Below are positions 1,102-54,894 of a stretch of 59,602 nt of DNA, one piece after another. This stretch comes from Candidatus Moraniibacteriota bacterium (GTDB lineage Bacteria > Patescibacteriota > Minisyncoccia > Moranbacterales > UBA1568). The stretch covers positions 1 to 59,602 of the forward strand of contig JAAXXZ010000005.1 in NCBI GenBank assembly GCA_013334245.1. The letters are read 5' to 3'. Position 1 is the first letter of the stretch. The number at the start of each line of letters is the position of its first letter. The notes below the pieces were generated by a model. The model did no database searches and had not been told where the DNA came from. It saw only the letters and a list, made by a program, of their open reading frames with translations. Position numbers and translations under genes: made by a program.

Positions 1102-2144
1102 ATTCACCCCCGAATTAGGACACCCGGTCAAAATAGTGGTTACCCTCATCCCCATACTACATCATTTGCAAGAGCCACTTCATACGCGCTCCGATAGCCG
1201 AGGATCTTCCTCGGTTTTTTGTTGACCAATCGAGCTGCCTCATCCATCTCCTTTTCACTCACCGACGCGAAGTCGGTTCCCTTGGGGAAGTACCTCCGAA
1301 GCATCTTGTTCACGTTCTCCACCCTTCCCTTCTGCCAGGAAGCATACGGATCGCAGAAGAAGGTCGGCATACCGAAGAGGGAGTGTTTCCCGTTCTCGAT
1401 CCCATTGTCGAGGGTGAGGCTTTTCATATGCAATGTTTTGCTCATGTCCCGTACCTTCAGAAGATTCTCCGACGGCGACATCGACGTGAGTTTCCTGACC
1501 GATACGAACCTGCTTTTCCGTTCCAACAAGACGCTCATTCCTCCCGATCCGCCACGACTCGATACCACGGTGTCTCCTTCGAAGTGACCGTACCTTGACC
1601 GGTTGTCCGCTCCGTGAGACCGCTCAGTGATGCTGATCCGGTCGGGAATCATGACTCGGTCCGTCTTGTTCTTCTTCCTTGGCTTCTTGCGATATCTCGC
1701 CTGATACAGGTGACGGCAGTGTATCTGTCCCCGGGCACTGTACAGCCACTCGTATATGGCCGTCTTGGACGCGTAGAAGGGCTCGCGATCCTCTTTCATC
1801 CTTCCCGATATCTCATCGGGGTTCCAATGCTTTTCCAATCCGGCGATGATGTACTCCCGAAGAGCTGTATCATGGTCGATTTTCTTCCACTGGAACTTCG
1901 CGTCTTTCTTCCTCGTCCTCGCTTTCCGGTCCGCTTTCAGGGGATCGTATGCCCCGTTCACGCTGTTTTCCTTCACCTCATACGAGATTGTGTTCGGACT
2001 TCGTCCCAAGGCTCGGGCTATGGCCCGATGGGAATACTTCCTTTCCAGGAGGATCCTGATCTCGAGTCGTTCGGCACGGCTCAGCTTTTGTTTGTTTTCC
2101 ATGCGGAAAGTATAGACCAAGAGTGTCCTAATCCAGAACGGAAT
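1102..2144 (-). mobile_element. IS30-family insertion sequence
   Basis: Transposase flanked by imperfect 22-bp inverted repeats: ATTCACCCCCGAATTAGGACAC (1102-1123) and GTGTCCTAATCCAGAACGGAAT (2123-2144), 16/22 match. Exact ends and TSD are not resolved. Confidence 0.85.
1146..2120 (-). CDS. IS30-family transposase
   Basis: N-terminal HTH (SHRAIARALGRSPNTISYE), W(N/S)PDEISGR, GHFEGDTV, TLDNGIE, FFCDPYASWQKGRVENVNKMLRRYFPKG and NKKPRKILGY are all IS30 motifs. Real start may be ATG at 2102. Confidence 0.95.
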   Translation of the reverse strand: MVYTFRMENKQKLSRAERLEIRILLERKYSHRAIARALGRSPNTISYEVKENSVNGAYDPLKADRKARTRKKDAKFQWKKIDHDTALREYIIAGLEKHWNPDEISGRMKEDREPFYASKTAIYEWLYSARGQIHCRHLYQARYRKKPRKKNKTDRVMIPDRISITERSHGADNRSRYGHFEGDTVVSSRGGSGGMSVLLERKSRFVSVRKLTSMSPSENLLKVRDMSKTLHMKSLTLDNGIENGKHSLFGMPTFFCDPYASWQKGRVENVNKMLRRYFPKGTDFASVSEKEMDEAARLVNKKPRKILGYRSAYEVALANDVVWG

Positions 2145-2893: not shown

Positions 2894-3160
2894 GGGGTGA
2901 CTACAGGGAAACAACCCTGACGAGTGTTACCACAAACCGCAGTTCGTGGGACGTGCGGTTGTGAGCAACGAGGAGGACCCTCCACTGGGGTGACTACAGG
3001 GAAACAACCCTGATTCATATCTTTTGAAAAGCGCCCGTGGGGGTGACTACAGGGAAACAACCCTGACGAGTGTTACCGCAAACCGCAGTCCGTGGGACGT
3101 GCGGTCGTGAGCAACGAGGAGAACCCTCTGCTGGGGTGACTACAGGGAATCGAACCCTGA
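2894..3160 (-). repeat. Tandem array of tRNA-His 3'-end copies
   Basis: GGGGTGACTACAGGGAAACAACCCTGA at 2894, 2987 and 3040 (spacings 93, 53, 93 nt to the tRNA copy at 3133). The two 66-nt spacers are near-identical. Confidence 0.9.
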
Positions 3161-3206
3161 TTCATGGTACCACAAACCATTGTCCTACCATTGAACGATA
3201 GTCACC
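3132..3206 (-). tRNA. tRNA-His(GTG)
   Basis: Cloverleaf G(-1)GTGACTA...ATGGT-TTGTGGT-ACCAT...CAGGG-TTCGATT-CCCTG-TAGTCAC-C-CCA. Confidence 0.95.
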
Positions 3207-3229
3207 CCGCCAGAGACTTCATTTTTTTG

Positions 3230-3301
3230 TGCCCTCGGAGGGAATCGAACCCCCATCAAGGGCTTAGAAGACCCCTGCTCTATCCATTGAGCTACAAGGG
3301 C
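3230..3301 (-). tRNA. tRNA-Arg(TCT)
   Basis: GCCCTTG...GGGGT-CTTCTAA-GCCCT...TTCGATT...CGAGGGC-A; no encoded CCA. Confidence 0.95.
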
Positions 3302-3332
3302 GGATGTATCCGTCCGATCATTGTCTGTTTGA

Positions 3333-3556
3333 TTGTGGGTCGTGCAGGATTCTCCTTCACCTCTCGTCGTACCTTCGTACGACTCGGGTTAGGCACCGCC
3401 TCACGATTTTGTCTGCTGACAAAATGTGCTCCGGCGTTCGAACCCTGGTACGAGTGAAATCGTTCACTCATACCGACGTTATCCGAACGTGAATCCGCAA
3501 TTCAAGATCCTGACCGTTCGCCTGGCGTTCAGGTCTTTGTGGGTCGTGCAGGATTC
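3333..3556 (-). repeat. 20-bp direct repeat of the tRNA-Lys 3' end bracketing a 204-bp structured unit
   Basis: TTGTGGGTCGTGCAGGATTC at 3333-3352 and 3537-3556. Confidence 0.9.
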
Positions 3557-3612
3557 GAACCTGCGACCGTTTGCTTAAGAGGCAACTGCTCTACCAACTG
3601 AGCTAACGACCC
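3540..3612 (-). tRNA. tRNA-Lys(CTT)
   Basis: GGGTCGT-TAGCTCAGTTGGTAGAGC...CTCTTAA...GCAGG-TTCGAAT-CCTGC-ACGACCC-A. Confidence 0.95.
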
Positions 3613-3717
3613 ATGACTATGTAATTGTGACCGTGCTTTCGAGTCTCTTTTTCCAAAATAAACCGAAATCGCGTCCCGACCGCGATAGCGGTACTCTATC
3701 AAAAAATGATTTCCCCG

Positions 3718-4995
3718 TCAATTCCCGGACGCGACCGGTTTCGGGGCCGTTACCACTGCCTTGGAGGCGACGAACGCATCCCATTGTTTTTTCGACCAGT
3801 CGGCGGGTTTTACGGTCAGATCCTGCGGATGAGGGAAGAGCGAAGGGGATTTGTAGCTGCTCGGGAACTTGTCGTCGAACAGGACGGCTCCCGATGAGTC
3901 GGTCACTTTCTGCGAGAAAGTCGTTTTCATGCTGCCGTCCGGATTGGATTCGAGGATATGCGGACCGTCGATTTCCACCTGACGGCCGTCCTTCGTTCCG
4001 TAAAATCTGAACGTGAGCGACGTTCCCTCGACGGAAGAGAGAATGAGGATGTGTCCCGGGGTATTGTTGATAAAGCGGAAATCGGGATTTGGAATGTAGA
4101 CGGTGGCGTCCATACCGTACGGCTTGTAGTACGAGACGGGATAGGCGTGATTCCGGCGTGCCGTTATCTTCATTCCGGCGTTTACGGCCGTCCGGAACAT
4201 CGTCGAGGAGACCTGACAGATGCCGCCCCCGAATTCCGGTTCGGTCTTATTGTTCTTGATGACAAGTTCCGGAAGGTATCCGTGCTCACCATCGACATCG
4301 CCGAGCTGTTTGACGAACGAGAATTCGGCTCCCGGTGCGATAAGGACTCCCTGAAACTGTTCGAGTGCGCGGTTGATGTTGAAGATTCGGTTTTTCGGCG
4401 AGCCGCGAAAGTTCGTCGTGCCTTCGGCGACAAGTTCCCGTACGCCGAGTTCCGAAGGGTCGGTCGAGCCGATCGTGGGTGGGGCAACTTTCACCGGCAG
4501 CGAGACCGTATCTTTCCCGGCTTCGATTGCTGTCCGTATGGAAGCTACGGCTGCCGATTCGTCGATGGTAAGGCCGTCTTTTCCGGCGTCGAGTATCGTA
4601 ATCGTCTTGTCCGTCGTTTCTCCGAACGTCGGGTTTTTCGGTTCGCGGTTTACTTTTCCGGAGAGCGTCGAGACGTATCGCGAGATGGCGACGGAATCGG
4701 TCTTTCGGGAGGACGTTGTGAACGTCGTCTCGCGGCTTCTTCGGGAAAACGACCAGAGGCACAGTATCTTATCGGTACAGGCGTGGACATTTTCGATTTC
4801 CGATCGAAAGGCGGAGCGGGGAACGAGCGTCGTTTCCACCGTCATGAAAGACGAAACGGTCGATGCGGGAACGGACTCATGAAAACCGTCGGCCTCGATG
4901 GTCAGCGCCTGAGAAGTCGATCCATGCAAAGCTAAAAAAGCGGAAAACAACATTCCGAATAGGATAGCGGATTGTTCCCGTTTCGCTGGAATCAT
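3718..4995 (-). CDS. VanW-family protein with N-terminal membrane anchor
   Basis: NRIFNI...EFSF...GGGICQVSSTMFRTAVNAGMKITARRNHAYPVSYY...GMDATVY...DFRFIN is the VanW domain signature. Confidence 0.9.
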   Translation of the reverse strand: MIPAKREQSAILFGMLFSAFLALHGSTSQALTIEADGFHESVPASTVSSFMTVETTLVPRSAFRSEIENVHACTDKILCLWSFSRRSRETTFTTSSRKTDSVAISRYVSTLSGKVNREPKNPTFGETTDKTITILDAGKDGLTIDESAAVASIRTAIEAGKDTVSLPVKVAPPTIGSTDPSELGVRELVAEGTTNFRGSPKNRIFNINRALEQFQGVLIAPGAEFSFVKQLGDVDGEHGYLPELVIKNNKTEPEFGGGICQVSSTMFRTAVNAGMKITARRNHAYPVSYYKPYGMDATVYIPNPDFRFINNTPGHILILSSVEGTSLTFRFYGTKDGRQVEIDGPHILESNPDGSMKTTFSQKVTDSSGAVLFDDKFPSSYKSPSLFPHPQDLTVKPADWSKKQWDAFVASKAVVTAPKPVASGN

Positions 4996-5098: not shown

Positions 5099-5659
5099 TT
5101 AGAAGCCCCGAACGAGAATCTTCTTCACCTTGGTCGTGTCGGCTTTCGGGAGTCTGATCGTGAGTATGCCGTTTTTCAGCGATGCGTCGGCCTTTTCCGG
5201 AATGACATCTACCGGCAGCAGTACGGAACGCGAAAACCCACCCCAATAGCACTCCTGGTAATAGTAATTTCCCTGTTCGACGACTTCCTCGTTCTTTCGC
5301 TCGCCCTTGACGGTGACCATGTCGTTGTTGATCGTCACGTCGAGATCTTCCGGTTTCACGCCGGCAATCGTCGACTTAATGACGATCTCGTTCTCCGTCT
5401 GGTAGACGTCGATGGTGAGCTGTCCTTCGATATCATTGTTTTCCGGCATAGTCTGCGGGGCCGCCTGCGGCTGATAAGATGGTGAACTCCAGGACGGCTG
5501 GGTGACGGGCATCGCCGGCTCGTCGTTCGTATGGAGCGAGAACTGGGTCGTTTCCTCCTCTTCGTAGATCGGAAGCGAGGCGCCGGCCGTTTCGTTCTCA
5601 TCCATCCGCTGGGCTCCCGTTAAGCGCTCAAAAAAAGACTTTTTTTCCTTGGTGACCAT
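5099..5659 (-). CDS. Hsp20/alpha-crystallin small heat-shock protein
   Basis: DVYQTENEIVIKSTIAGVKPEDLDV...VKGER...ECYWGGFSRSVLLP...ASLKNGILTIRLPK. Start placed at MVTKEKK (ORF track starts 5716). Confidence 0.92.
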   Translation of the reverse strand: MVTKEKKSFFERLTGAQRMDENETAGASLPIYEEEETTQFSLHTNDEPAMPVTQPSWSSPSYQPQAAPQTMPENNDIEGQLTIDVYQTENEIVIKSTIAGVKPEDLDVTINNDMVTVKGERKNEEVVEQGNYYYQECYWGGFSRSVLLPVDVIPEKADASLKNGILTIRLPKADTTKVKKILVRGF

Positions 5660-5702: not shown

Positions 5703-6179
5703 TCAGACAAGCGCAAGAACGACGTCGTAGAGGAGATGGATGGTTATGCCGATAACGAGCGCCATTTTCGCCCGATTCTTTCCGCTCGGGATCGCGAATC
5801 CGTAGAGGAGAGAAGTCAGGACGTGTATCGAAAGCATGCCGACCATCGGAGGGAAGGGGATGAGCCCGGTGCCGGATGTCAGGGACGCGAGTGCGATTTC
5901 GGTCGCCGCGAACCCGAGCCCGAAAAGTGCGGAGGACGCCCACGGGCTTCCGATCCGGTTCTGCCAAGCCTGTCGGCTGAGCACGATGAGTTTCAGGGAT
6001 TCCTCGATGACGGCGACGAAGACGAATGTCACGAAACCGATCGCGGACAGTCCGGATGAGAGTCCGAGGTGCCAAGGGTCCATTCCTGCTCCGGAAGGTA
6101 CCAGGAATGAAAATACGGCGAGTTCGGCGACGACTGCGAAGAGAGCGGAGAAGCATCCGGAAAATAGGAAAAGGATCAT
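5703..6179 (-). CDS. PrsW-family intramembrane metalloprotease-like protein
   Basis: Multi-TM protein with EEsxK (IEESLK), GLGFAATE and two His motifs (IHVLT, IHLLYD). Confidence 0.7.
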   Translation of the reverse strand: MILFLFSGCFSALFAVVAELAVFSFLVPSGAGMDPWHLGLSSGLSAIGFVTFVFVAVIEESLKLIVLSRQAWQNRIGSPWASSALFGLGFAATEIALASLTSGTGLIPFPPMVGMLSIHVLTSLLYGFAIPSGKNRAKMALVIGITIHLLYDVVLALV

Positions 6180-6194: not shown

Positions 6195-8870
6195 TTATGA
6201 GGAAATCGAGGAAAGATGCCCGCGGAGTTCTTCGGCTTTGGCATTCGTCTCGTCGAGGATGTTCCTGGTCTGCGCGACGACCGCTTCCGGTGCGCGTTCT
6301 GCGAAGGACGGGTTTCCGAGTTTGGCTTCCAGGGACTTCGCGTATGTCTCGGCTTCAGTGAGTTCCTTCGTGAGGCGGGTGCGTTCCGCGTCGATGTCGA
6401 TGATGTCTTCGAGGGAAATGCTGGCGGAAAGTCGATCGGAAATGATGAGTTCGGCCGATGAACCGTCGAATGATGTTACGATCTCGATTCTTGCGAGGCG
6501 TTCGACGGCCGGATAACTTTCCGAAAGGTCGATGCCCTTGGAAACGAGAGAACCCGTCAGGCGCCTTATCGGGTCGATACGATAGGTTGCCCGGAGATTT
6601 CGAATCTTCGTAACGAGCAATCGGAGTTCGTTGAAGGCGGTTTCCGTGTCGATATCTATATCTTCGGAAATGTCCGGCCAATGAGTGACCATAAGCAGTC
6701 TGTCGTTCCCATGGGTCTCATTGATCGCCTCAGTCACGAATGGGAGGAAGGGGTGCCAGAGTCGGAGAAGGGTGGCGAGGACGTGTCGGAGCACGTCGTC
6801 ATTTTTTTCGACCTTGTGAATTTCGACATACCAGTCTGCGAAATCGTCAACCGTGAAGGAACGGATCGTCTCGATCGCGAGTGAGAAACGACTCTCGGAG
6901 AGATGCTCGGCGGTCTCATTGACGATATGTGAGAGTCGTCCGAGGATGTATCGGTCGGAAAGCGACTTCGGGACAGGGGTTTCGACGGAGGCCATGCTCA
7001 TCGTCGCGACGTAGCGGGAGATATTCCACAGTTTGTTTACGAAATTCCTGGACGTTTCCATCTTCTCCGTCGAGAAGCGGGAGTCGTTTCCGGGAGTGAC
7101 GTCGGAGAGGAGCGCGAGGCGGAGCGCGTCAGTGCCGTATTCCTTCCCGATGTCGATCGGATCGATTCCATTGCCGAGCGACTTGGAGAATTTCCGACCA
7201 TCCTTGTCGCGGAGGATGCCATGAATGTAGACGGTCTTGAAGGGGATCGTATCGAGTGCGTATGTGGTCATGAGGATCATCCGGGCCATCCAGAAAAACA
7301 CGATCTCGTATCCCATCTGCATGAACGTGACGGGATGGAACGTCTTTAAATCGTTCGTTTCCGCATCGGGCCATCCGAGCGTGGAGAATGTCCAGAGTCC
7401 CGAAGAGAACCAAGTATCGAGCGTATCCGGATCCTGTTCCCAACCTTCTCCCTCCGGCGCCTCCACCCCGCAATACATTTCGATTTCTCCCTCCTCATCT
7501 GTTGTCAGTTGTCTGTTGTCAGTTGTCGGTTTTTTATACCAGACGGGGATGCGATGTCCCCACCAGATCTGTCGGGAGATGCACCAGTCGCGGAGGTTGT
7601 CGATCCAGCGGAGGTAGACCTTTTCGAACCGTTCCGGTTGGATCGAGACGCGCCTGTTCCCGTCGCCGCCCAGGCCCGAGGTCACGGCTTCACGCATGAG
7701 GTCCTTGAGTGATTTGTCGCGCCCGGGAATCTCCCGGTTGACCGCGACGAACCACTGTTCCATCGGAAGCACTTCGACGACATCGCCAAAACGGTCGGAC
7801 GTACCGACATTCTGGATGATATCCTCTTCTTTTTCCAATAGGCCGTTTTCACGGAGATACGTGACGAACTTTTCGCGTGCCGAAAGGACGTCGAGTCCCC
7901 GGTATTCCTTTCCGGCATCGAGAGTCATCTTCCCGTCGGCTCCGATGACCTGTACGAGGTTGATTTCGGGGTGCCGTTCGCGGATATCGAAGTCGGTCTG
8001 ACTGTGTGCCGGGGTGACGCCGACTGCGCCCGTTCCGAACGAGGGATCCACTTCCTCGTCCCCGATGACTCGTATGGAAAGCGGTTTCGCCGCTCCGATT
8101 TCGATTTCGAAGATTCTGCCGATGAGGTCCCGGTATCGCGGGTCTTCGGGATGGACGGCAACCGCCGTGTCGCCGAGTTTCGTTTCCGGTCGGGTCGTGG
8201 CGACGGGAATCGGGAAGTCTTTTGAATAACGGAACGTATAGAGTGTGGCAGGCCGTTCGATATGCTCGAGCTCGTCGTCGGAGCAGGTGGACTGTCCCTT
8301 TACCGACCAGTTGACGACCCGATATCCCTTGTAGATAAGGCCGTCGTCGTACATCTTCTTGAACATCGTGTTTACCGCAAGGACACGCGCGTCATCGAAC
8401 GTGTATGCGAATCGCGACCAGTCGCAACTCGATCCCATGGCCCGAACCTGTCTCGTGATGGTGTCTTTGGACTCGTCCGCGAACGTCCGTATCTTTTCAA
8501 GGAGTCGCTCCCGACCGAGTTCCTGACGTGGATTCGTCATGCCCGAAGCGACGAGATTTTTTTCGACGCGCGACTGTGTCGCGACGGCGGCATGATCTGC
8601 GCCGGGAAGAAAAAGGGTCCGCTCACCGCGCATGCGATGATAGCGGGCTACGACGTCCATGATGGAATTTTCCATCGCGTGGCCGAGATGAAGCACCCCG
8701 GTCACGTTCGGTGGCGGCATGAGGATTGAAAACGTCTCGGCGTCCGCTTTCGTAATCCCTTTTTCGATGCAGGTATCGGGGTTGAAAAAACCGCTCTCTT
8801 CCCACTTCCGGTAGAGCCTGTCTTCCCATTCTTTCGGATCGTACGCTTTCGGTATGTCAGTCGGTTCCAT
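6195..8870 (-). CDS. valS: Valine--tRNA ligase
   Basis: PPPNVTGVLHLGHA (HIGH), DWCISRQIWWGHRIP, DTLDTWFSS, KFSKS (KMSKS), C-terminal coiled coil. Real start MEPTDIPKAY at 8870; the 117-aa ORF extension overlaps the upstream gene. Confidence 0.98.
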   Translation of the reverse strand: MEPTDIPKAYDPKEWEDRLYRKWEESGFFNPDTCIEKGITKADAETFSILMPPPNVTGVLHLGHAMENSIMDVVARYHRMRGERTLFLPGADHAAVATQSRVEKNLVASGMTNPRQELGRERLLEKIRTFADESKDTITRQVRAMGSSCDWSRFAYTFDDARVLAVNTMFKKMYDDGLIYKGYRVVNWSVKGQSTCSDDELEHIERPATLYTFRYSKDFPIPVATTRPETKLGDTAVAVHPEDPRYRDLIGRIFEIEIGAAKPLSIRVIGDEEVDPSFGTGAVGVTPAHSQTDFDIRERHPEINLVQVIGADGKMTLDAGKEYRGLDVLSAREKFVTYLRENGLLEKEEDIIQNVGTSDRFGDVVEVLPMEQWFVAVNREIPGRDKSLKDLMREAVTSGLGGDGNRRVSIQPERFEKVYLRWIDNLRDWCISRQIWWGHRIPVWYKKPTTDNRQLTTDEEGEIEMYCGVEAPEGEGWEQDPDTLDTWFSSGLWTFSTLGWPDAETNDLKTFHPVTFMQMGYEIVFFWMARMILMTTYALDTIPFKTVYIHGILRDKDGRKFSKSLGNGIDPIDIGKEYGTDALRLALLSDVTPGNDSRFSTEKMETSRNFVNKLWNISRYVATMSMASVETPVPKSLSDRYILGRLSHIVNETAEHLSESRFSLAIETIRSFTVDDFADWYVEIHKVEKNDDVLRHVLATLLRLWHPFLPFVTEAINETHGNDRLLMVTHWPDISEDIDIDTETAFNELRLLVTKIRNLRATYRIDPIRRLTGSLVSKGIDLSESYPAVERLARIEIVTSFDGSSAELIISDRLSASISLEDIIDIDAERTRLTKELTEAETYAKSLEAKLGNPSFAERAPEAVVAQTRNILDETNAKAEELRGHLSSISS

Positions 8871-11865: not shown

Positions 11866-11937
11866 GGCCCGTTCGTCTAGTGGTTAGGACATCAGGTTTT
11901 CATCCTGGTAACAGGGGTTCGATTCCCCTACGGGCTA
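11866..11937 (+). tRNA. tRNA-Glu(TTC)
   Basis: GGCCCGT-TCGTCTAGTGGTTAGGAC-ATCAGG-TTTTCAT-CCTGG...AGGGG-TTCGATT-CCCCT-ACGGGCT-A. Confidence 0.95.
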
Positions 11938-12155
11938 CGTGGAAACGGAGGCTCCCCATCGAGGGGAGTTTTCGTTTTCCCGTATCGGGGGAATCGAACG
12001 GGCAGAAGCGAGTCTTCGAGCGTAGACGAATGCGAGCGGGCGTAGCATTCGTCTCTGCCCCGGGCTACGAGGCGCCGGCAGGAGCTGAGGACGAAATTCC
12101 CCTACGGGCTACGTGGAAACGGAGGCTCCCCATCGAGGGGAGTTTTTGTTTTCCC
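11922..12155 (+). repeat. ~60-bp direct repeat (tRNA-Glu 3' end plus terminator), period 174 bp
   Basis: ATTCCCCTACGGGCTACGTGGAAACGGAGGCTCCCCATCGAGGGGAGTTTT is identical at 11922 and 12096. Confidence 0.92.
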
Positions 12156-12295
12156 ACAGAGGGGAATCGAATAGTGCAAATTTGGCGCGGACAGAGGCAG
12201 GTCGGGCTGGATAAAGCGAGACGACTACCGGGAAAGGCGGCAATGGATGATACAATGGTAGTGTGGAATAAACCGGTGGATAGCATCGAATTCTT

Positions 12296-13069
12296 ATGAA
12301 AATCACAATTTTGGGAACTGGATCGTTTTATGCGGATAAAGATCGTTCCGGTGCCGCGTATCTGCTGGAGGCTGGCGGAAAGAAATTTCTGATTGATTGT
12401 GGGCCGGGAACGCTGATGAGACTTTCCCAGATCGGGGTCGCGCCGGAAGACATCGATTACGTCTTTCTCTCACATTTCCATGCCGACCATACGAGCGACT
12501 TGTTCGCGTTCCAGATGAGATTCAGGCTCAACGATTTTTTCGGTACAAAAAGGAACGAAAAAATGCCGGTAATATTCGGACCGAATGGGATCAAGCGTTT
12601 TACGAGGAGGCTATCTCATGTGTATCAGCTGTATGCGTTCGAAAACTGGTCGGAGATACGGTACGAGACCATCGGAAGGAAAACGAAACTTGGCAATGTG
12701 GTCGTTTCGGCATATAGGACGAAGCACGTCGCTTTCGGCGTACCTGCCAAGGCGTTCTCGCTGAGATTCGAATGCGAGGGAAAAATATTCGTCTTTTCCG
12801 GGGACAGCGTGAAGGATACCGGGGTCGAAAAAGCGTCCAGAAAGGCGGACTTGTTCATCTGCGACGCTTCCTATGTGAAGGGTAAGGCGAGCGTGGCTCA
12901 TATGGACACGTGGGAGATCGGGGAAATTGCGCAGGCGAACACGGTAAAAAAGGTCGTGTTGACCCATTTCTATCCGAATACGGCAGGATCCGATCTGGTA
13001 AGCGAAGTGAAAGAGAAGTTCACGGGGGAGGTGATCAGAGGGGAAGACCTCATGGAGTTAGACGTGTAA
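12296..13069 (+). CDS. Metallo-beta-lactamase-fold hydrolase (RNase Z/BN-like)
   Basis: ILGTG, LIDCGPG, SHFHADHTSD (HxHxDH), FSGD, AHMDT, LTHFYP. Confidence 0.88.
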   Translation: MKITILGTGSFYADKDRSGAAYLLEAGGKKFLIDCGPGTLMRLSQIGVAPEDIDYVFLSHFHADHTSDLFAFQMRFRLNDFFGTKRNEKMPVIFGPNGIKRFTRRLSHVYQLYAFENWSEIRYETIGRKTKLGNVVVSAYRTKHVAFGVPAKAFSLRFECEGKIFVFSGDSVKDTGVEKASRKADLFICDASYVKGKASVAHMDTWEIGEIAQANTVKKVVLTHFYPNTAGSDLVSEVKEKFTGEVIRGEDLMELDV

Positions 13070-51429: not shown

Positions 51430-52347
51430 ATGATTGAGACTTCCACTAATACTGAAAATTCAGACTTTTTACAGTCATTCTCACATGTCATCAAGGGTCG
51501 TTTTTTGGATGAAGCTAAGAAAACAAAGCTAGATTTATTTGTTCTCAATATAAGTGCGAATGAATTTGATTATGAGACATTTAAGACAAGGCTAGTAGAT
51601 CTTGTTGTTGATTTTGCATTATCTAGAAAAGTTAAAAATAAATATAAAGACAAGCCCGTAACATTGGCGAACCGTGCGAAAGATAAATTTAAGAAAGGAA
51701 TAAATAGGGGAGAGTTAGGAGAGTTTCTTTTGTTTTGTTTTCTAGAGAATCATCTAAAAGCTCCAAAAATACTTACTAAACTCGAACTAAAAACGTCAAC
51801 AAGCACGTACGTTCATGGATCCGATGGTGTGCATTTCTTAAAACTAGATAATGGTAACTTTCAGCTGATTTTTGGAGAATCAAAAACAAAATTAAGACTC
51901 ACAGATGCCTTGAGCGATGCATTTCAGTCGATCCATGAGTTCAAAACTTGTAGAAATACAAATGGAAATACAAAAAGCGGACTTCCATATGAAAAATGTC
52001 TTATTAATGATGAGATCGAAAAGGAGGCATTTTCAAAAGAAGAAATGGACTTTATAGAACGCCTTATTTATCCGAGAGCGGATAGTGAATTCGAGGTTGA
52101 CGATGCATTTGGAATATTTGTTGGATATGATATTCAAATTTCAGAAGATGAAAAAAAGTTGCCAAATTTTGATTTCAGAAGATTGATTGAAGAAAAAATA
52201 ATAAAAGAGGTTGAGAATAAGATTCCACATATCAGCAAAAAAATAAATGAGTATGATTTAACAGGACACCACTTCTATATCTATATTATGCCGTTCACTC
52301 AGCTAAAAATAAATAGAAAAGACATAACAGGACATATTACTGCCTAA
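51430..52347 (+). CDS. hamA: Hachiman antiphage protein HamA (DUF1837)
   Basis: GELGEFLLF, KLELKT, HGSDGVH, FGESK; directly upstream of a Ski2-like helicase; very AT-rich. Confidence 0.88.
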   Translation: MIETSTNTENSDFLQSFSHVIKGRFLDEAKKTKLDLFVLNISANEFDYETFKTRLVDLVVDFALSRKVKNKYKDKPVTLANRAKDKFKKGINRGELGEFLLFCFLENHLKAPKILTKLELKTSTSTYVHGSDGVHFLKLDNGNFQLIFGESKTKLRLTDALSDAFQSIHEFKTCRNTNGNTKSGLPYEKCLINDEIEKEAFSKEEMDFIERLIYPRADSEFEVDDAFGIFVGYDIQISEDEKKLPNFDFRRLIEEKIIKEVENKIPHISKKINEYDLTGHHFYIYIMPFTQLKINRKDITGHITA

Positions 52348-52350
52348 TAT

Positions 52351-54894
52351 ATGTTTGAAAAACTTGCAAAAAAAGCCTTAAAAGACGAATACTTTTTAAA
52401 GATATTTCAGAAAGCGGAACTAAATAATGCTAATCAATTCTTTCACAATTTAGACAGTGTTCAGGAATTATCAGAGAAAGAATTTGTTGATCTGATGCGA
52501 TTCGCAGATATCTTTTCGCATTCAAAAAAGTCGGAAGCAAAAAATCTTGCATATAAAATTATTTGCCTTTTAATGCGCGATAAGCGTGATGATGAGACTT
52601 TTAAAATCGTTGCAGCTGCAGTTCTTGTAAAATTAGGAAACTTTCCGGCATTGAGATTATTATCTGAGCAATATAGCTTTGTGGAAAGACTGCCATTTGA
52701 AAGAGAAATTGAAAAAAACATAAAAGAGGAAATGCAAAAGGTACCCCATACTAATAAGGTCTTTACTGACTCACAATATGAAATATTTGAGGCATTAAAA
52801 AACAATAATCACTTTAGTTTTTCTGGCCCTACTTCGCTTGGGAAATCATTTATTATTGAATCGTTTATTCATTATCTTGCTTCGGAGCAAGGATCGGAAG
52901 AGAATATGATTGTTTTGGTTCCGACAAGAGCGTTGATAAACCAAGTGTCATTGAAGCTCAAGAATGATTTAAAAGACATTAAGAATTATAGGGTTCTTAC
53001 TCATCCAATAGTTCCAGAACTATTTAGGAAGGGACGAGACAAATTTATTTTTGTATTCACTCCGGAGAGATTGATTTCATTTTTGTCCGATAATAATAAT
53101 CCAAGAATAGGATATTTATTTATTGACGAGGCACAAAAAATTACTTCAAGAAAAGACAATAGAAGTCCTTTGTACTATCATGCAATCTTGCAGGCAGAAA
53201 GAAAGTCAATAAAACTATATTTTTCGTCTCCGAATATTCCAAATCCTGAGATATTTCTTCAAATGTTCGAAAAAAGTACGGATGAAACAATAACAATTAA
53301 AGATTCTCCGGTTGCTCAAAATAGATATTTCATTGACTTAGTTGAAGGGAAGGCCGTTTTCTTTTCAGAAAATCGGAAAAGAATAGAGATCCACACCGAC
53401 TTAAACGGGAGAGACTTCTTTTCATGTCTAAATATGCTCGGAAGCAATGAACAAAACATAATATATTGCAATACAATTGATGATACGATTAAATATGCGC
53501 TTGATTATTCTAGCGCGATAGATGCTGTAGTAAACCCAAAAATCAATGATCTGATAAAATTGATTGAAGAATATTTACACAGAGAATATTACTTAATTGA
53601 TTGTTTGAAAAAGGGCGTAGCTTTTCATTTTGGTAAATTACCACAAAGGATAAGAGTTCGGGTGGAGGAACTGTTTAGAGAAGGAATAATAACAAATATA
53701 TTTTGTACCTCTACATTATTAGAGGGCGTAAATTTACCCGCTAAAAATATATTTATTCTTAGTAATGCTATAGGGCTTTCAAAATTTACAGACATAGATT
53801 TTTGGAATTTAGCAGGAAGGGCTGGAAGACTAACAAAAGAACTTTCAGGAAATATTGTATGTGTAAGGGCAGAGAATAAAAAAAACCGCTGGAATAACCC
53901 CGAAAGAAATTTATCTATTGTAGAAGAACAAACTATTAAGCCAGTCAAACCCCTTGTTATTGGAGGACAAGGAAATTTTTTTAAAAATCTTGAGAATTCG
54001 CTAAAACAAGAAAATTTTAGTAATGAAAACGCATCGCAAAAAGAGAAAGATATTTGGAACTACTACGCCAATATCGCACTAATTCATGAGATCAGAAAAG
54101 ATGAATCTGTTCTAAAGGCAAATTTTATTGAAAAGAATGGCAATGCGCGAGAACTATTAAGACGGGAAAAAGAAAAGAATAAAGTACCCGATAAGATCTT
54201 GTCGGCATCTTCTACAATAAAAGCGACATATCAGAATCAAATTTTTGAAAAAGTGACAAGGGAAGACATTTTGCCAAATGTTGTTGATTATGAGGTAGCA
54301 AAAAATCAACTTGAAAAGATTTACGAATATTATTCCTGGGATATAGAAGAAAACGGTGGGAAAAATCCATTGGTAAATAAGGGAAGTATAAACATTCTGA
54401 AATATTATGCGATGCTGATGAACTCGTGGATAAATTCTGATCCTATTAGCAAGATTATTTTAACTACGTTAAAATATTATCAACAAAACGGAGTAGACAT
54501 AGCCGTAGGGAAAAACAAAATTGTTTTTGATGGCGGAGATAAAAGACATATCAATTTCGTTATTAACAAATTAATGGGAGATATAGAGAATATTTTAAGA
54601 TTTAAATTAGAAAAATATTTTAATAATTATTATCTTATATTAACGGAAAAACTTGGGGAATTTAATGCAGGAGCAAACTGGGCAGAGTTTTTAGAATATG
54701 GTACGACGGACAGGAAAGTGATTGAACTTCAAAACATAGGATTTTCTCGACATTTTTCAAAGTATATACTAGAAAGACACGGTGACTGCCTTTCTTTCGA
54801 AAATGAAATATTGGATAGAATAGACTATTCAAAGCTAGAAAGAGAACTGGATAAAAAGAGTGACGAGTATCAAGAGTATAAAGAGCTATGTTAA
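52351..54894 (+). CDS. hamB: Hachiman DEAD/DEAH helicase HamB
   Basis: GPTSLGKS, DEAQ, TSTLLEGVNLPA, NLAGRAGR; 3 nt after hamA. Confidence 0.88.
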   Translation: MFEKLAKKALKDEYFLKIFQKAELNNANQFFHNLDSVQELSEKEFVDLMRFADIFSHSKKSEAKNLAYKIICLLMRDKRDDETFKIVAAAVLVKLGNFPALRLLSEQYSFVERLPFEREIEKNIKEEMQKVPHTNKVFTDSQYEIFEALKNNNHFSFSGPTSLGKSFIIESFIHYLASEQGSEENMIVLVPTRALINQVSLKLKNDLKDIKNYRVLTHPIVPELFRKGRDKFIFVFTPERLISFLSDNNNPRIGYLFIDEAQKITSRKDNRSPLYYHAILQAERKSIKLYFSSPNIPNPEIFLQMFEKSTDETITIKDSPVAQNRYFIDLVEGKAVFFSENRKRIEIHTDLNGRDFFSCLNMLGSNEQNIIYCNTIDDTIKYALDYSSAIDAVVNPKINDLIKLIEEYLHREYYLIDCLKKGVAFHFGKLPQRIRVRVEELFREGIITNIFCTSTLLEGVNLPAKNIFILSNAIGLSKFTDIDFWNLAGRAGRLTKELSGNIVCVRAENKKNRWNNPERNLSIVEEQTIKPVKPLVIGGQGNFFKNLENSLKQENFSNENASQKEKDIWNYYANIALIHEIRKDESVLKANFIEKNGNARELLRREKEKNKVPDKILSASSTIKATYQNQIFEKVTREDILPNVVDYEVAKNQLEKIYEYYSWDIEENGGKNPLVNKGSINILKYYAMLMNSWINSDPISKIILTTLKYYQQNGVDIAVGKNKIVFDGGDKRHINFVINKLMGDIENILRFKLEKYFNNYYLILTEKLGEFNAGANWAEFLEYGTTDRKVIELQNIGFSRHFSKYILERHGDCLSFENEILDRIDYSKLERELDKKSDEYQEYKELC

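Follow-up and report, generated by a model that had tools for sequence, protein, structure and literature searches.

The stretch of DNA analysed here, called the window below, comprises positions 1 to 59,602 of contig JAAXXZ010000005.1 (NCBI GenBank assembly GCA_013334245.1) of a Candidatus Moraniibacteriota bacterium. VanW homologues assign it to Moranbacteria, and it is ordinary chromosomal DNA of that group, with genes for ValRS, TsaD, RecG, ClpB, a type IV pilus, LigA and GatA, together with a Hachiman-like pair. tRNA genes were called with ARAGORN and the Rfam tRNA model, and in five of the seven window tRNAs the 3' ends were duplicated downstream. The subject of this study is a structured repeat unit that ends in such a duplicate. 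It was first seen behind tRNA-Lys(CTT), where the unit is followed by tRNA-Arg(TCT) and then tRNA-His, and behind tRNA-Arg(GCG), where the unit is placed between two terminators.

Repeat units in the window

A first-pass annotation of the sequence had reported a structured insert in a duplicated tRNA-Lys 3' end and a sister copy in that of tRNA-Arg(GCG). Both copies are indeed present, on the minus strand, which is the tRNA-sense strand, and an alignment of the two cores returned exactly the shared blocks that had been listed. On this strand, the Lys copy reads CAGGGTT, CGAA, the core (CGCCGGAGC...GAGAGGTGAAGGAG) and then AATCCTGCACGACCCACAA. When the whole window was searched with the 14-mers GTGAGGCGGTGCCT and GAGAGGTGAAGGAG, zero-mismatch sites were obtained only at the Lys and Arg(GCG) units.

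The same annotation had read the copies as a T-arm split at its loop. We found instead that the stretch on the 5' side of the core is the reverse complement of the cognate tRNA nucleotides (nt) 58-65 and not a copy of nt 49-57; the resemblance to a T-arm arises for tRNA-Lys only, because TTCGAA is palindromic and hence its own complement. Nor is the element an insert in a pre-existing duplicated T-arm. The unit is larger (~130-200 nt) and consists of a hairpin (HP0), the antisense strand, the core and the 3' copy. The Arg(GCG) HP0 is preceded by GCGCGAGG, for which imperfect pairing with the acceptor 3' strand is possible. The coordinates of all parts are collected in Table 1.

Relatives and their linkage to tRNA genes

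Relatives were found by scanning metagenome contigs and one genome per species with sequence patterns, and then with a covariance model (R1) built from 15 copies. Below, v1 denotes the core variant of the Lys and Arg(GCG) units, and labels of the form L0xx denote loci carrying units or sites compared with them. The first-pass annotation had made its proposal hang on homologues elsewhere. The scans and R1 gave 24 distinct copies of the v1 core, with strong covariation, at 18 Moranbacteria/Parcubacteria loci, and the named records among them were Candidatus Moranbacteria and Vogelbacteria. The v1 copies lay 15-110 nt 3' of a tRNA gene on the same strand, with L029 as the sole exception; mini-units right behind the tRNA were found in 17 of the 18 independent v1 loci, and an autonomous version was not found. 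The proposed tie to tRNA 3' ends was borne out by copies after nine tRNA species, namely Lys(CTT), Lys(TTT), Arg(GCG), Arg(CCG), Arg(TCT), Arg(TCG), Pro(TGG), Cys(GCA) and Tyr(GTA).

Following the terminal GGAG of the core, the sequence corresponds to the cognate tRNA nt 58-73 plus 1-3 nt. The boundary therefore does lie in the T-loop, as had been suggested, and its position is G57/A58. The 3' copy was identical to the tRNA over 16-20 nt or more in most copies and had diverged in L027, L033 and L047. The copies carry no CCA, and these tRNA genes do not encode CCA. Copying from a mature tRNA by reverse transcription halted at 1-methyladenosine 58 (m1A58) was ruled out by the genomic trailer bases (CAA, C, A), which stand in place of CCA.

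Locus L029 (1-3080) has the only v1 core without an intact upstream tRNA. The core is followed there by small open reading frames (ORFs) on the same strand, including a HicA/HicB-like pair, and a mobile or prophage-like context is possible.

In viral contigs, a first loose two-block pattern gave 11 loci and a stricter scan gave 2, all of which were chance matches, and BLAST of the unit against phage and plasmid collections gave no match. Chance matches also accounted for L014 and L017 in the genome scan and for 11 of the 24 loci in the metagenome scan, the latter within GC-rich coding DNA. The Rfam cmscan proposed in the first-pass annotation matched no family to the element: only tRNAs and chance matches were returned, both from the whole window at the gathering threshold and from 3200-3700 and 11930-12300 at E <= 10. 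Literature searches yielded no published description of such an element in bacteria of the candidate phyla radiation (CPR).

Fold and covariation

The fold was derived from the 24 sequences by RNAalifold and pair counting, with shuffles (n=500) for comparison. Five helices were obtained: HP0; P0, in which the 7-8 nt before the junction are paired with nt 58-65 of the 3' copy; P1, in which CGCC pairs with GGCG; a short basal helix below hairpin HP1; and P2 with hairpin HP2. The core is a three-way junction with two hairpin arms. Its purine-rich loops and the junction itself were invariant in the alignment, and the purine-rich internal loops in both arms look like tandem G-A pairs.

Paired cells amounted to 94.6%, compared with 78.1 +/- 0.8% in the shuffles. 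Changes on both sides were observed in 26 of 34 pairs, and none of the 500 shuffles reached any of the observed measures. HP0 was found in all v1 copies, and all 8 of its pairs covary; likewise, 7 of the 8 pairs of P0 had changed on both sides. When the 3' partners were slid, pairing fell to 34-47%. The first-pass annotation had pointed out that the hairpins of its two copies differ in sequence and keep their pairing; with 24 copies, this becomes strong covariation, and the element is a conserved structured one. Furthermore, G-U pairs outnumbered A-C pairs by 46 to 12, and the folding z-score of the Lys unit was lower on the sense strand (-6.5) than on the other strand (-5.7). The fold therefore belongs to the tRNA-sense strand.

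Filled and empty sites

Contigs of relatives covering the Lys locus were retrieved via VanW homologues. The gene order TsaD-ValRS-HSP20-VanW-tRNAs was conserved. At the empty sites L044, L045 and L046, tRNA-Arg(TCT) was located 16-19 nt after tRNA-Lys, whereas the filled sites (the window, L016, L022, L038 and L047) had ~200 extra bases and a 19-20 bp direct repeat starting at A58 (G57/A58). Beyond the second repeat, the filled sites had a flanking sequence matching that of the empty site. The element is an insertion/deletion polymorphism. When the copies of the window and L047 were compared, compensatory substitutions were found in HP0, HP1, HP2 and the spacer hairpin, the host VanW being ~76% identical; therefore, the fold has been kept during vertical descent.

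Tandem units were observed in L012, L044 and L046 and after the tRNA-Glu of the window, and the distal units of L012, L044 and L046 were decayed. Two spacer types are present in both the window and L012, with their order reversed between the two, and the copies do not always cluster by locus. The genes adjoining units in unrelated loci were housekeeping genes, e.g. those for Ddl, alanine racemase, ThyX and uridine kinase. A co-occurring integrase or HUH enzyme had been suggested as something to look for. A Pfam domain scan for mobility genes, covering 29 window ORFs and 10 locus ORFs, detected no integrase, transposase, TnpB, reverse transcriptase or HUH enzyme in the window or beside the units.

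Several further insertions were seen in and around the units. A miniature inverted-repeat transposable element (MITE) of ~215 nt, with the ends CAGAGCCCG... and ...CGGGCTCTAG, lies inside the HP0 3' strand of one unit (L046 ~7700-7915, L044 ~7200-7420). The most distal tRNA-end copies have a hairpin insert of 26-41 nt at exactly 65/66, often ending in TAAA (window 19531-19571 on the minus strand; L015 172-205; L022 ~2760-2790; L046 ~8160-8190). This position, which separates the 3' strands of the T-stem and the acceptor stem, is a second site of recurrent insertion. The region past the Arg unit differs among genomes. Between the Arg(GCG) unit and tRNA-Arg(CCG) there is a variable cargo spot (compare L012 1512-2471, minus strand, with window 19343-19476), which contains a 319-aa ORF without a Pfam match in L012, small membrane-like ORFs in L015 and none in the window.

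Antisense strand and resemblance to tRNA

Other antisense strands were GAGGGACT-CGAA for Tyr, CAGGAAT-CGGA for Arg(GCG), CAGGAAT also for Arg(CCG) and TTGGAGT for Lys(TTT). The P0 count was 6.0 of 8 with the cognate tRNA versus 5.1 with non-cognate ones and was thus weakly discriminating, because T-arms are alike and the units with a GAGAA junction are shifted by one position. In L030, L033 and the Arg(TCG), Arg(GCG) and Glu units, a segment of 6-10 nt resembling the acceptor 5' strand was found 5' of HP0, and it pairs with the copied acceptor 3' strand. This pairing was strong in L030, L033, L044 and L047 (-14 to -20 kcal/mol versus -6.1 +/- 3.6 for non-cognate pairing), and between L022 and L044 it covaries in the Arg(TCG) copies, which differ by a compensatory change. 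As a folded single strand, the unit thus mimics the acceptor/T-stem stack of its own tRNA, with the core replacing the T-loop and HP0 replacing the emerging D and anticodon arms.

Other core variants

Units with the same layout and other cores were obtained from weaker model matches and from a search for repeated tRNA ends. A core ending in GTGACCG/A follows Gly(GCC), Arg(TCG), Ala and Trp, and one ending in ..GCCG/A follows Leu(TAG) and Leu(TAA). The unit behind tRNA-Glu in the window has a fourth, unrelated core of ~97 nt with the end GACGAA/ATTCCCCTACGGGCTA, in which ATTCCCCTACGGGCTA is the tRNA-end copy. Among the core variants, all four Watson-Crick pairs occur at the middle position of P1. 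The 3' arm differs greatly among them, whereas the boundary is unchanged: all share one terminal G/A boundary, and in variants 1-3 the G is the last core nucleotide.

Comparison with known systems

The first-pass annotation took the element to be unnamed. However, it is not a class without precedent, as the tRNA-linked repeats (TLRs; Rfam RtT, RF00391) of E. coli have the same layout. These comprise 22 sequences in ten loci, with one to five per locus, and are without known function, RrA/B/F excepted (PMC8144298). RrA/B/F are transcribed with and processed from the operon precursor, and rrnB/RrB has a terminator-unit-terminator layout (PMC8144298). As summarised in Stenum et al. 2021 (PMC8144298), TLRs were first described by Egan and Landy in 1978 and then by Rudd in 1999.

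The units described here resemble TLRs in several respects. A unit stands in a stable-RNA operon, on the same strand, directly after a tRNA gene (or, for TLRs, a 5S gene). The last 18-19 nt of a TLR are identical to the 3' end of the upstream gene, compared with 16-20 nt or more here. Units may stand in tandem at one locus, a genome has several such loci (in the window, those of Lys, Arg(GCG) and Glu), and the two-terminator layout of rrnB recurs at the window Arg(GCG) unit. We also read the sequence of the E. coli tyrT locus. Its units end in AATCCTTCCCCCACCACCA, the repeat starts at A58 and several hairpins lie inside; in the closing helix, GGGGAAGGAU pairs with AUCCUUCCCC (also read as the upstream GGGGAAGGAT with ATCCTTCCCC), followed by a GAGAA junction. 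The RtT consensus has a corresponding closing helix (GgGaaGG.U with A.CCuuCcC), the counterpart of P0.

At the level of sequence, the E. coli units scored 133-137 bits on RF00391, whereas our model gave only 9.3 bits on tyrT, and RF00391 had no match in 3200-3700 at E <= 10 and none in the whole window at its gathering threshold (45 bits). Likenesses between the cores and E. coli TLRs (CCCGRR...GGGYGARG and GACGAA ends) were not significant against shuffles, and the claim of homology was dropped. Because the cores have no significant similarity, the analogy is an architectural one. Moreover, the core here is a two-arm three-way junction, whereas RtT has a long-range helix enclosing two hairpins; the copies here are without CCA, the host belongs to a CPR phylum, and insertion polymorphism and covariation are documented here. 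Judged by layout, the window units would fall within the TLR class, with shared architecture only. The units make up a candidate new family of structured RNAs in a CPR phylum, built on the same architecture as the long-known, unexplained tRNA-linked repeats.

A further comparison is with 3'ETS-leuZ, a small RNA from a tRNA operon spacer (Lalaouna et al. 2015, cited in PMC8144298). The likeness would be a functional RNA freed from a tRNA precursor by tRNA-processing cuts, and the difference is that 3'ETS-leuZ has no tRNA 3'-end copy or tRNA-mimicking helix, nor is it dispersed as a repeat. tRNA minihelices and tRNA-like RNAs (e.g. mascRNA, the tRNA-like tmRNA domain) share with the units an acceptor-like stem stacked on a T-stem-like helix and ends that are probably set by tRNA-processing enzymes. 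They differ in that an 85-nt junction domain replaces the T-loop here, the stack exceeds 12 bp and the sequence goes with that of the adjacent tRNA.

tRNA 3' ends are classical integration sites. With the integrative elements that target them, the units share the direct repeat of the tRNA 3' end, the T-loop boundary, the intact gene and the variable loci; however, the units are 150-200 bp long, have no integrase and carry a strand-specific RNA-like fold between the repeats. Theta ribozymes, the ribozymes of phages that resemble the hepatitis delta virus (HDV) ribozyme, flank tRNAs and are likewise structured RNAs right after a tRNA on the same strand. In contrast to these, the units have no Rfam ribozyme match and no nested double pseudoknot, are chromosomal and end in a 3' tRNA-end copy. 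In cmscan at E <= 10, none of the Rfam self-cleaving ribozymes (HDV-like, hammerhead, twister, pistol, hatchet and others) gave a match.

TLRs have been known since 1978, most of them without function or origin, and the question is now easier to test. The occurrence of an independent, strongly covarying family with the same grammar (antisense strand, junction core, copy of nt 58-73) in a very distant phylum with reduced genomes argues for selection on the layout itself or for a general mechanism that gives rise to it. Sites at which the unit is cleanly present or absent, and several core variants with one boundary, offer concrete handles for testing. The family would also add to the poorly charted non-coding RNA repertoire of CPR bacteria, and it serves as a warning for annotation that duplicated tRNA 3' ends in these genomes should not simply be taken for prophage attachment (att) sites.

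Proposed reading and alternatives

We somewhat favour, with confidence slightly above even, the reading that the unit is a spacer RNA of the TLR type, which is produced along with the tRNA precursor, receives its ends from tRNA-processing cuts, acts via its junction core, spreads at G57/A58 and is amplified or lost between repeats. The module is ordered as a spacer, often with a terminator hairpin, sometimes an acceptor-5'-like segment, HP0, 7-10 antisense nt, CGAA or GAGAA, the three-way-junction core with its two arms and GA-rich internal loops, and finally the copy of tRNA nt 58-73 plus 1-3 nt. Once made as RNA within the tRNA precursor, the unit would obtain its 5' end from the cut that frees the tRNA 3' end, and its 3' end when these enzymes cut at the tRNA-like terminal helix. 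Once freed, this RNA of ~130-150 nt would bind a protein or act via the junction core. The unit would reach new tRNAs through duplicative insertion or recombination at the T-loop, and it would be amplified or lost when its repeats recombine with each other. Within 3100-3750, a promoter-like site was found only upstream of tRNA-Lys, and none was present between tRNA-Lys and tRNA-Arg/His; because of this arrangement, the Lys unit would have to be transcribed if tRNA-Arg(TCT) and tRNA-His are expressed.

Several points weigh against this spacer-RNA reading. The promoter scan used an E. coli-type consensus, which may not fit CPR bacteria. Many units follow a good intrinsic terminator, and RNA levels may therefore be low. 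A fold of single-stranded DNA would yield the same covariation and G-T bias, and local alignment with E. coli TLRs was no better than with shuffles, i.e. there is no significant sequence similarity. The acceptor-like stem and P0 together make a stack of 15-18 bp, compared with 12 bp in tRNA, and it is therefore not assured that RNase Z, RNase P or the CCA-adding enzyme would recognise it. The acceptor-like strand is absent in several units (window Lys, L019, L035). In addition, this reading names no partner protein or target and does not account for the way in which three tRNA-specific patches are matched to each new tRNA.

Of the alternatives, a non-autonomous mobile DNA element survives best, and we still regard it as unlikely. 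Here the folded strand, DNA or RNA, would pair with nt 58-65 (possibly 54-65) of the tRNA gene or rebuild the target duplex, an enzyme acting in trans (an HUH/Y1 transposase, a Xer-like recombinase or a reverse transcriptase) would exchange strands at G57/A58, and a replacement tRNA 3' end would be supplied, so that the gene survives. Such an origin is consistent with the clean filled/empty polymorphism with its direct repeat, one conserved core at many tRNA targets, the same G/A boundary in all core variants, a length of 150-200 nt, which is the size of small non-autonomous elements, and tandem arrays of intact proximal and decayed distal units. The Arg(GCG) junction CGGA, which matches the unusual T-loop TCCG, and the non-clustering by locus, which suggests turnover between loci, also fit it. 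However, neither the window nor the flanks of the units yielded a transposase, integrase, reverse transcriptase or TnpB, and among the 18 v1 loci 17 were mini-units behind a tRNA, with no autonomous version. Conservation is lacking at the left ends, junctions of the GAGAA type do not follow the T-loop, and the viral contigs, phages and plasmids searched contained no copy. Furthermore, same-locus compensatory change over long host divergence is not expected of dead transposon copies.

A more doubtful idea is that the antisense segment is a true guide for the T-loop/T-stem of the tRNA gene or of the tRNA, directing its own insertion or, as a trans-splicing or repair ribozyme, a 3'-end swap at G57/A58; the E. 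coli TLRs would then be relics. For the idea that the junction CGAA is antisense to T-loop nt 54-57, there is one supporting case (CGGA with TCCG in Arg(GCG)), and the GAGAA units contradict it.

It is improbable that the unit is a small ribozyme in which P0 and the junction guide position the G57/A58 phosphate for self-cleavage or for trans-splicing of nt 58-73 onto a damaged tRNA. The antisense segment does adjoin a conserved junction and, in the manner of an internal guide sequence, reaches across the boundary. The three-way junction and the purine-rich loops show no variation, G is the last core nucleotide in variants 1-3, and tRNA-flanking theta ribozymes provide a precedent; nevertheless, no Rfam ribozyme family matched even at E <= 10, the 3' arms diverge greatly among core variants while the boundary stays, and no catalytic motif was recognisable. 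We give a similarly low standing to a decayed att-site scar, in which the repeat would be the attL/attR identity block of T-loop tyrosine-integrase elements and the core a leftover attP arm. Its arguments are the use of tRNA 3' ends as integration sites, the att-type partial tRNA duplicates in the same genome (tRNA-Ser from the anticodon loop, tRNA-His T-arm), the variable region past the Arg unit, and the L029 unit near small mobile-looking ORFs, including a HicAB-like pair, with no intact tRNA. Against them, strand-specific covarying hairpins and a three-way junction are unexpected for double-stranded arm sites, scars would not be maintained by compensatory substitutions, and in nearly all loci the repeats are merely 150-200 bp apart with no integrase nearby.

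Very improbable is a stand-alone guide of the TnpB/Cas12 omega-RNA type (core as scaffold, 16 nt of tRNA as guide, TTCGA as target-adjacent motif): the order of scaffold and ~16-nt flank and the convenient motif in the T-loop would suit it, but no TnpB or RuvC protein is encoded in the window or beside units, the first 7-10 nt of the would-be guide are paired in P0 with covariation, and the upstream tRNA gene is intact, unlike an IS200/IS605 flank. A bridge or seek RNA of the IS110 type, which would have two guide loops and be encoded at the end of an element, was rejected, as no DEDD recombinase gene lies beside the units and the single target-complementary segment is paired in cis.

Feature coordinates and minor observations

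Table 1. Positions of the tRNA genes, units and unit parts in the window
Feature	Position	Strand	Remarks
tRNA-Lys(CTT)	3539..3612	-	G57/A58 = 3556/3555, discriminator A73 = 3540; ARAGORN, Rfam
Proximal repeat in tRNA-Lys	3555-3537	-	AATCCTGCACGACCCACAA; sequence
Lys-unit spacer, 63 nt	3476..3538	-	Hairpin GACCTGAACG...CGGTCAGG, maintained in L047 by compensatory change
Lys-unit HP0	3451..3470	-	TGAGTGAA-CGAT-TTCACTCG
Lys-unit P0 5' strand	3441..3447	-	CAGGGTT; complements tRNA nt 58-64 in distal copy, one G-U
Lys-unit junction	3440-3437	-	CGAA, after P0 5' strand
Lys-unit X core, 85 nt (first-reported copy)	3352..3436	-	3' end GGAG
Lys core P1	3436-3433 with 3400-3397	-	CGCC with GGCG
Lys core HP1	3428-3403	-	
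Lys core P2	3393-3386 with 3363-3354	-	CCUAACCC with G.GGU..AGG
Lys core HP2	3383-3366	-	
Distal copy of tRNA-Lys nt 58-73 + CAA	3333..3351	-	AATCCTGCACGACCCACAA; P0 3' strand + acceptor 3' strand
Variant 4 unit after tRNA-Glu	11939..12111	+	Same layout, unrelated core; terminator, then CCCGTA-TCG-GGGGGAAT-CGAA
Second partial unit after tRNA-Glu	12112-12260	+	Without 3' copy
tRNA-Arg(GCG)	19729..19802	-	A58 = 19745, A73 = 19730; ARAGORN, Rfam
Terminator-like hairpin between tRNA-Arg(GCG) and its unit	19704..19724	-	First of two
Arg(GCG)-unit HP0	19670..19691	-	GCAGACGAA-CGAT-TTCGCTTGC
Arg(GCG)-unit P0 5' strand + junction	19657..19667	-	CAGCAAT + CGGA
Arg(GCG)-unit X core, 76 nt (sister copy)	19581..19656	-	
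Distal copy of tRNA-Arg(GCG) 3' end	19519..19580	-	Interrupted between T-stem and acceptor strand
Pieces of distal Arg copy	19580-19572; 19571-19531; 19530-19519	-	ATTCCTGCC; 41-nt hairpin insert; GCCGAGCGCACA
Second terminator + GGTGTGTGAGAAG	19477..19514	-	Remnant of second unit; spacer matches L012 proximal unit

Other tRNA-end duplicates were also observed. On the minus strand of the window, 2894-3065 contains three tandem tRNA-His T-arm-like hairpins with the acceptor 3' strand (CAGGGTTGTTTCCCTGTAGTCACCCC) and no core; a spacer of ~45-95 nt stands before each, and the same TTGTTT loop type was found after tRNA-Arg(TCT) in L038. Directly downstream of the tRNA-Ser(TGA) gene, its part between the anticodon loop and the 3' end is duplicated at 20746-20796 (plus strand), with a boundary like that of a classical att site, and a further, third copy, partial and degenerate, is located at ~20822-20845. 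In L013, short pseudo-tRNA 3' halves (GGGTGAAGG...CCGAGTTCGATTCTCGGCATCCCGA), to which no intact tRNA matches, occur on the minus strand at 5400-5460 and 6000-6075, after tRNA-Pro(GGG) and tRNA-Pro(CGG), respectively.

Two observations concern protein-coding genes of the window. A 324-aa ORF at 1146-2120 (minus strand), ~1 kb past the tRNA cluster, has an N-terminal HTH_38 as its sole domain; this fold is common among IS30-type transposases, and a catalytic domain was not detected in the ORF. Finally, a HamA-domain protein followed by a DEAD/ResIII helicase at 51430-54894 (plus strand) is a candidate defence pair of the Hachiman type.

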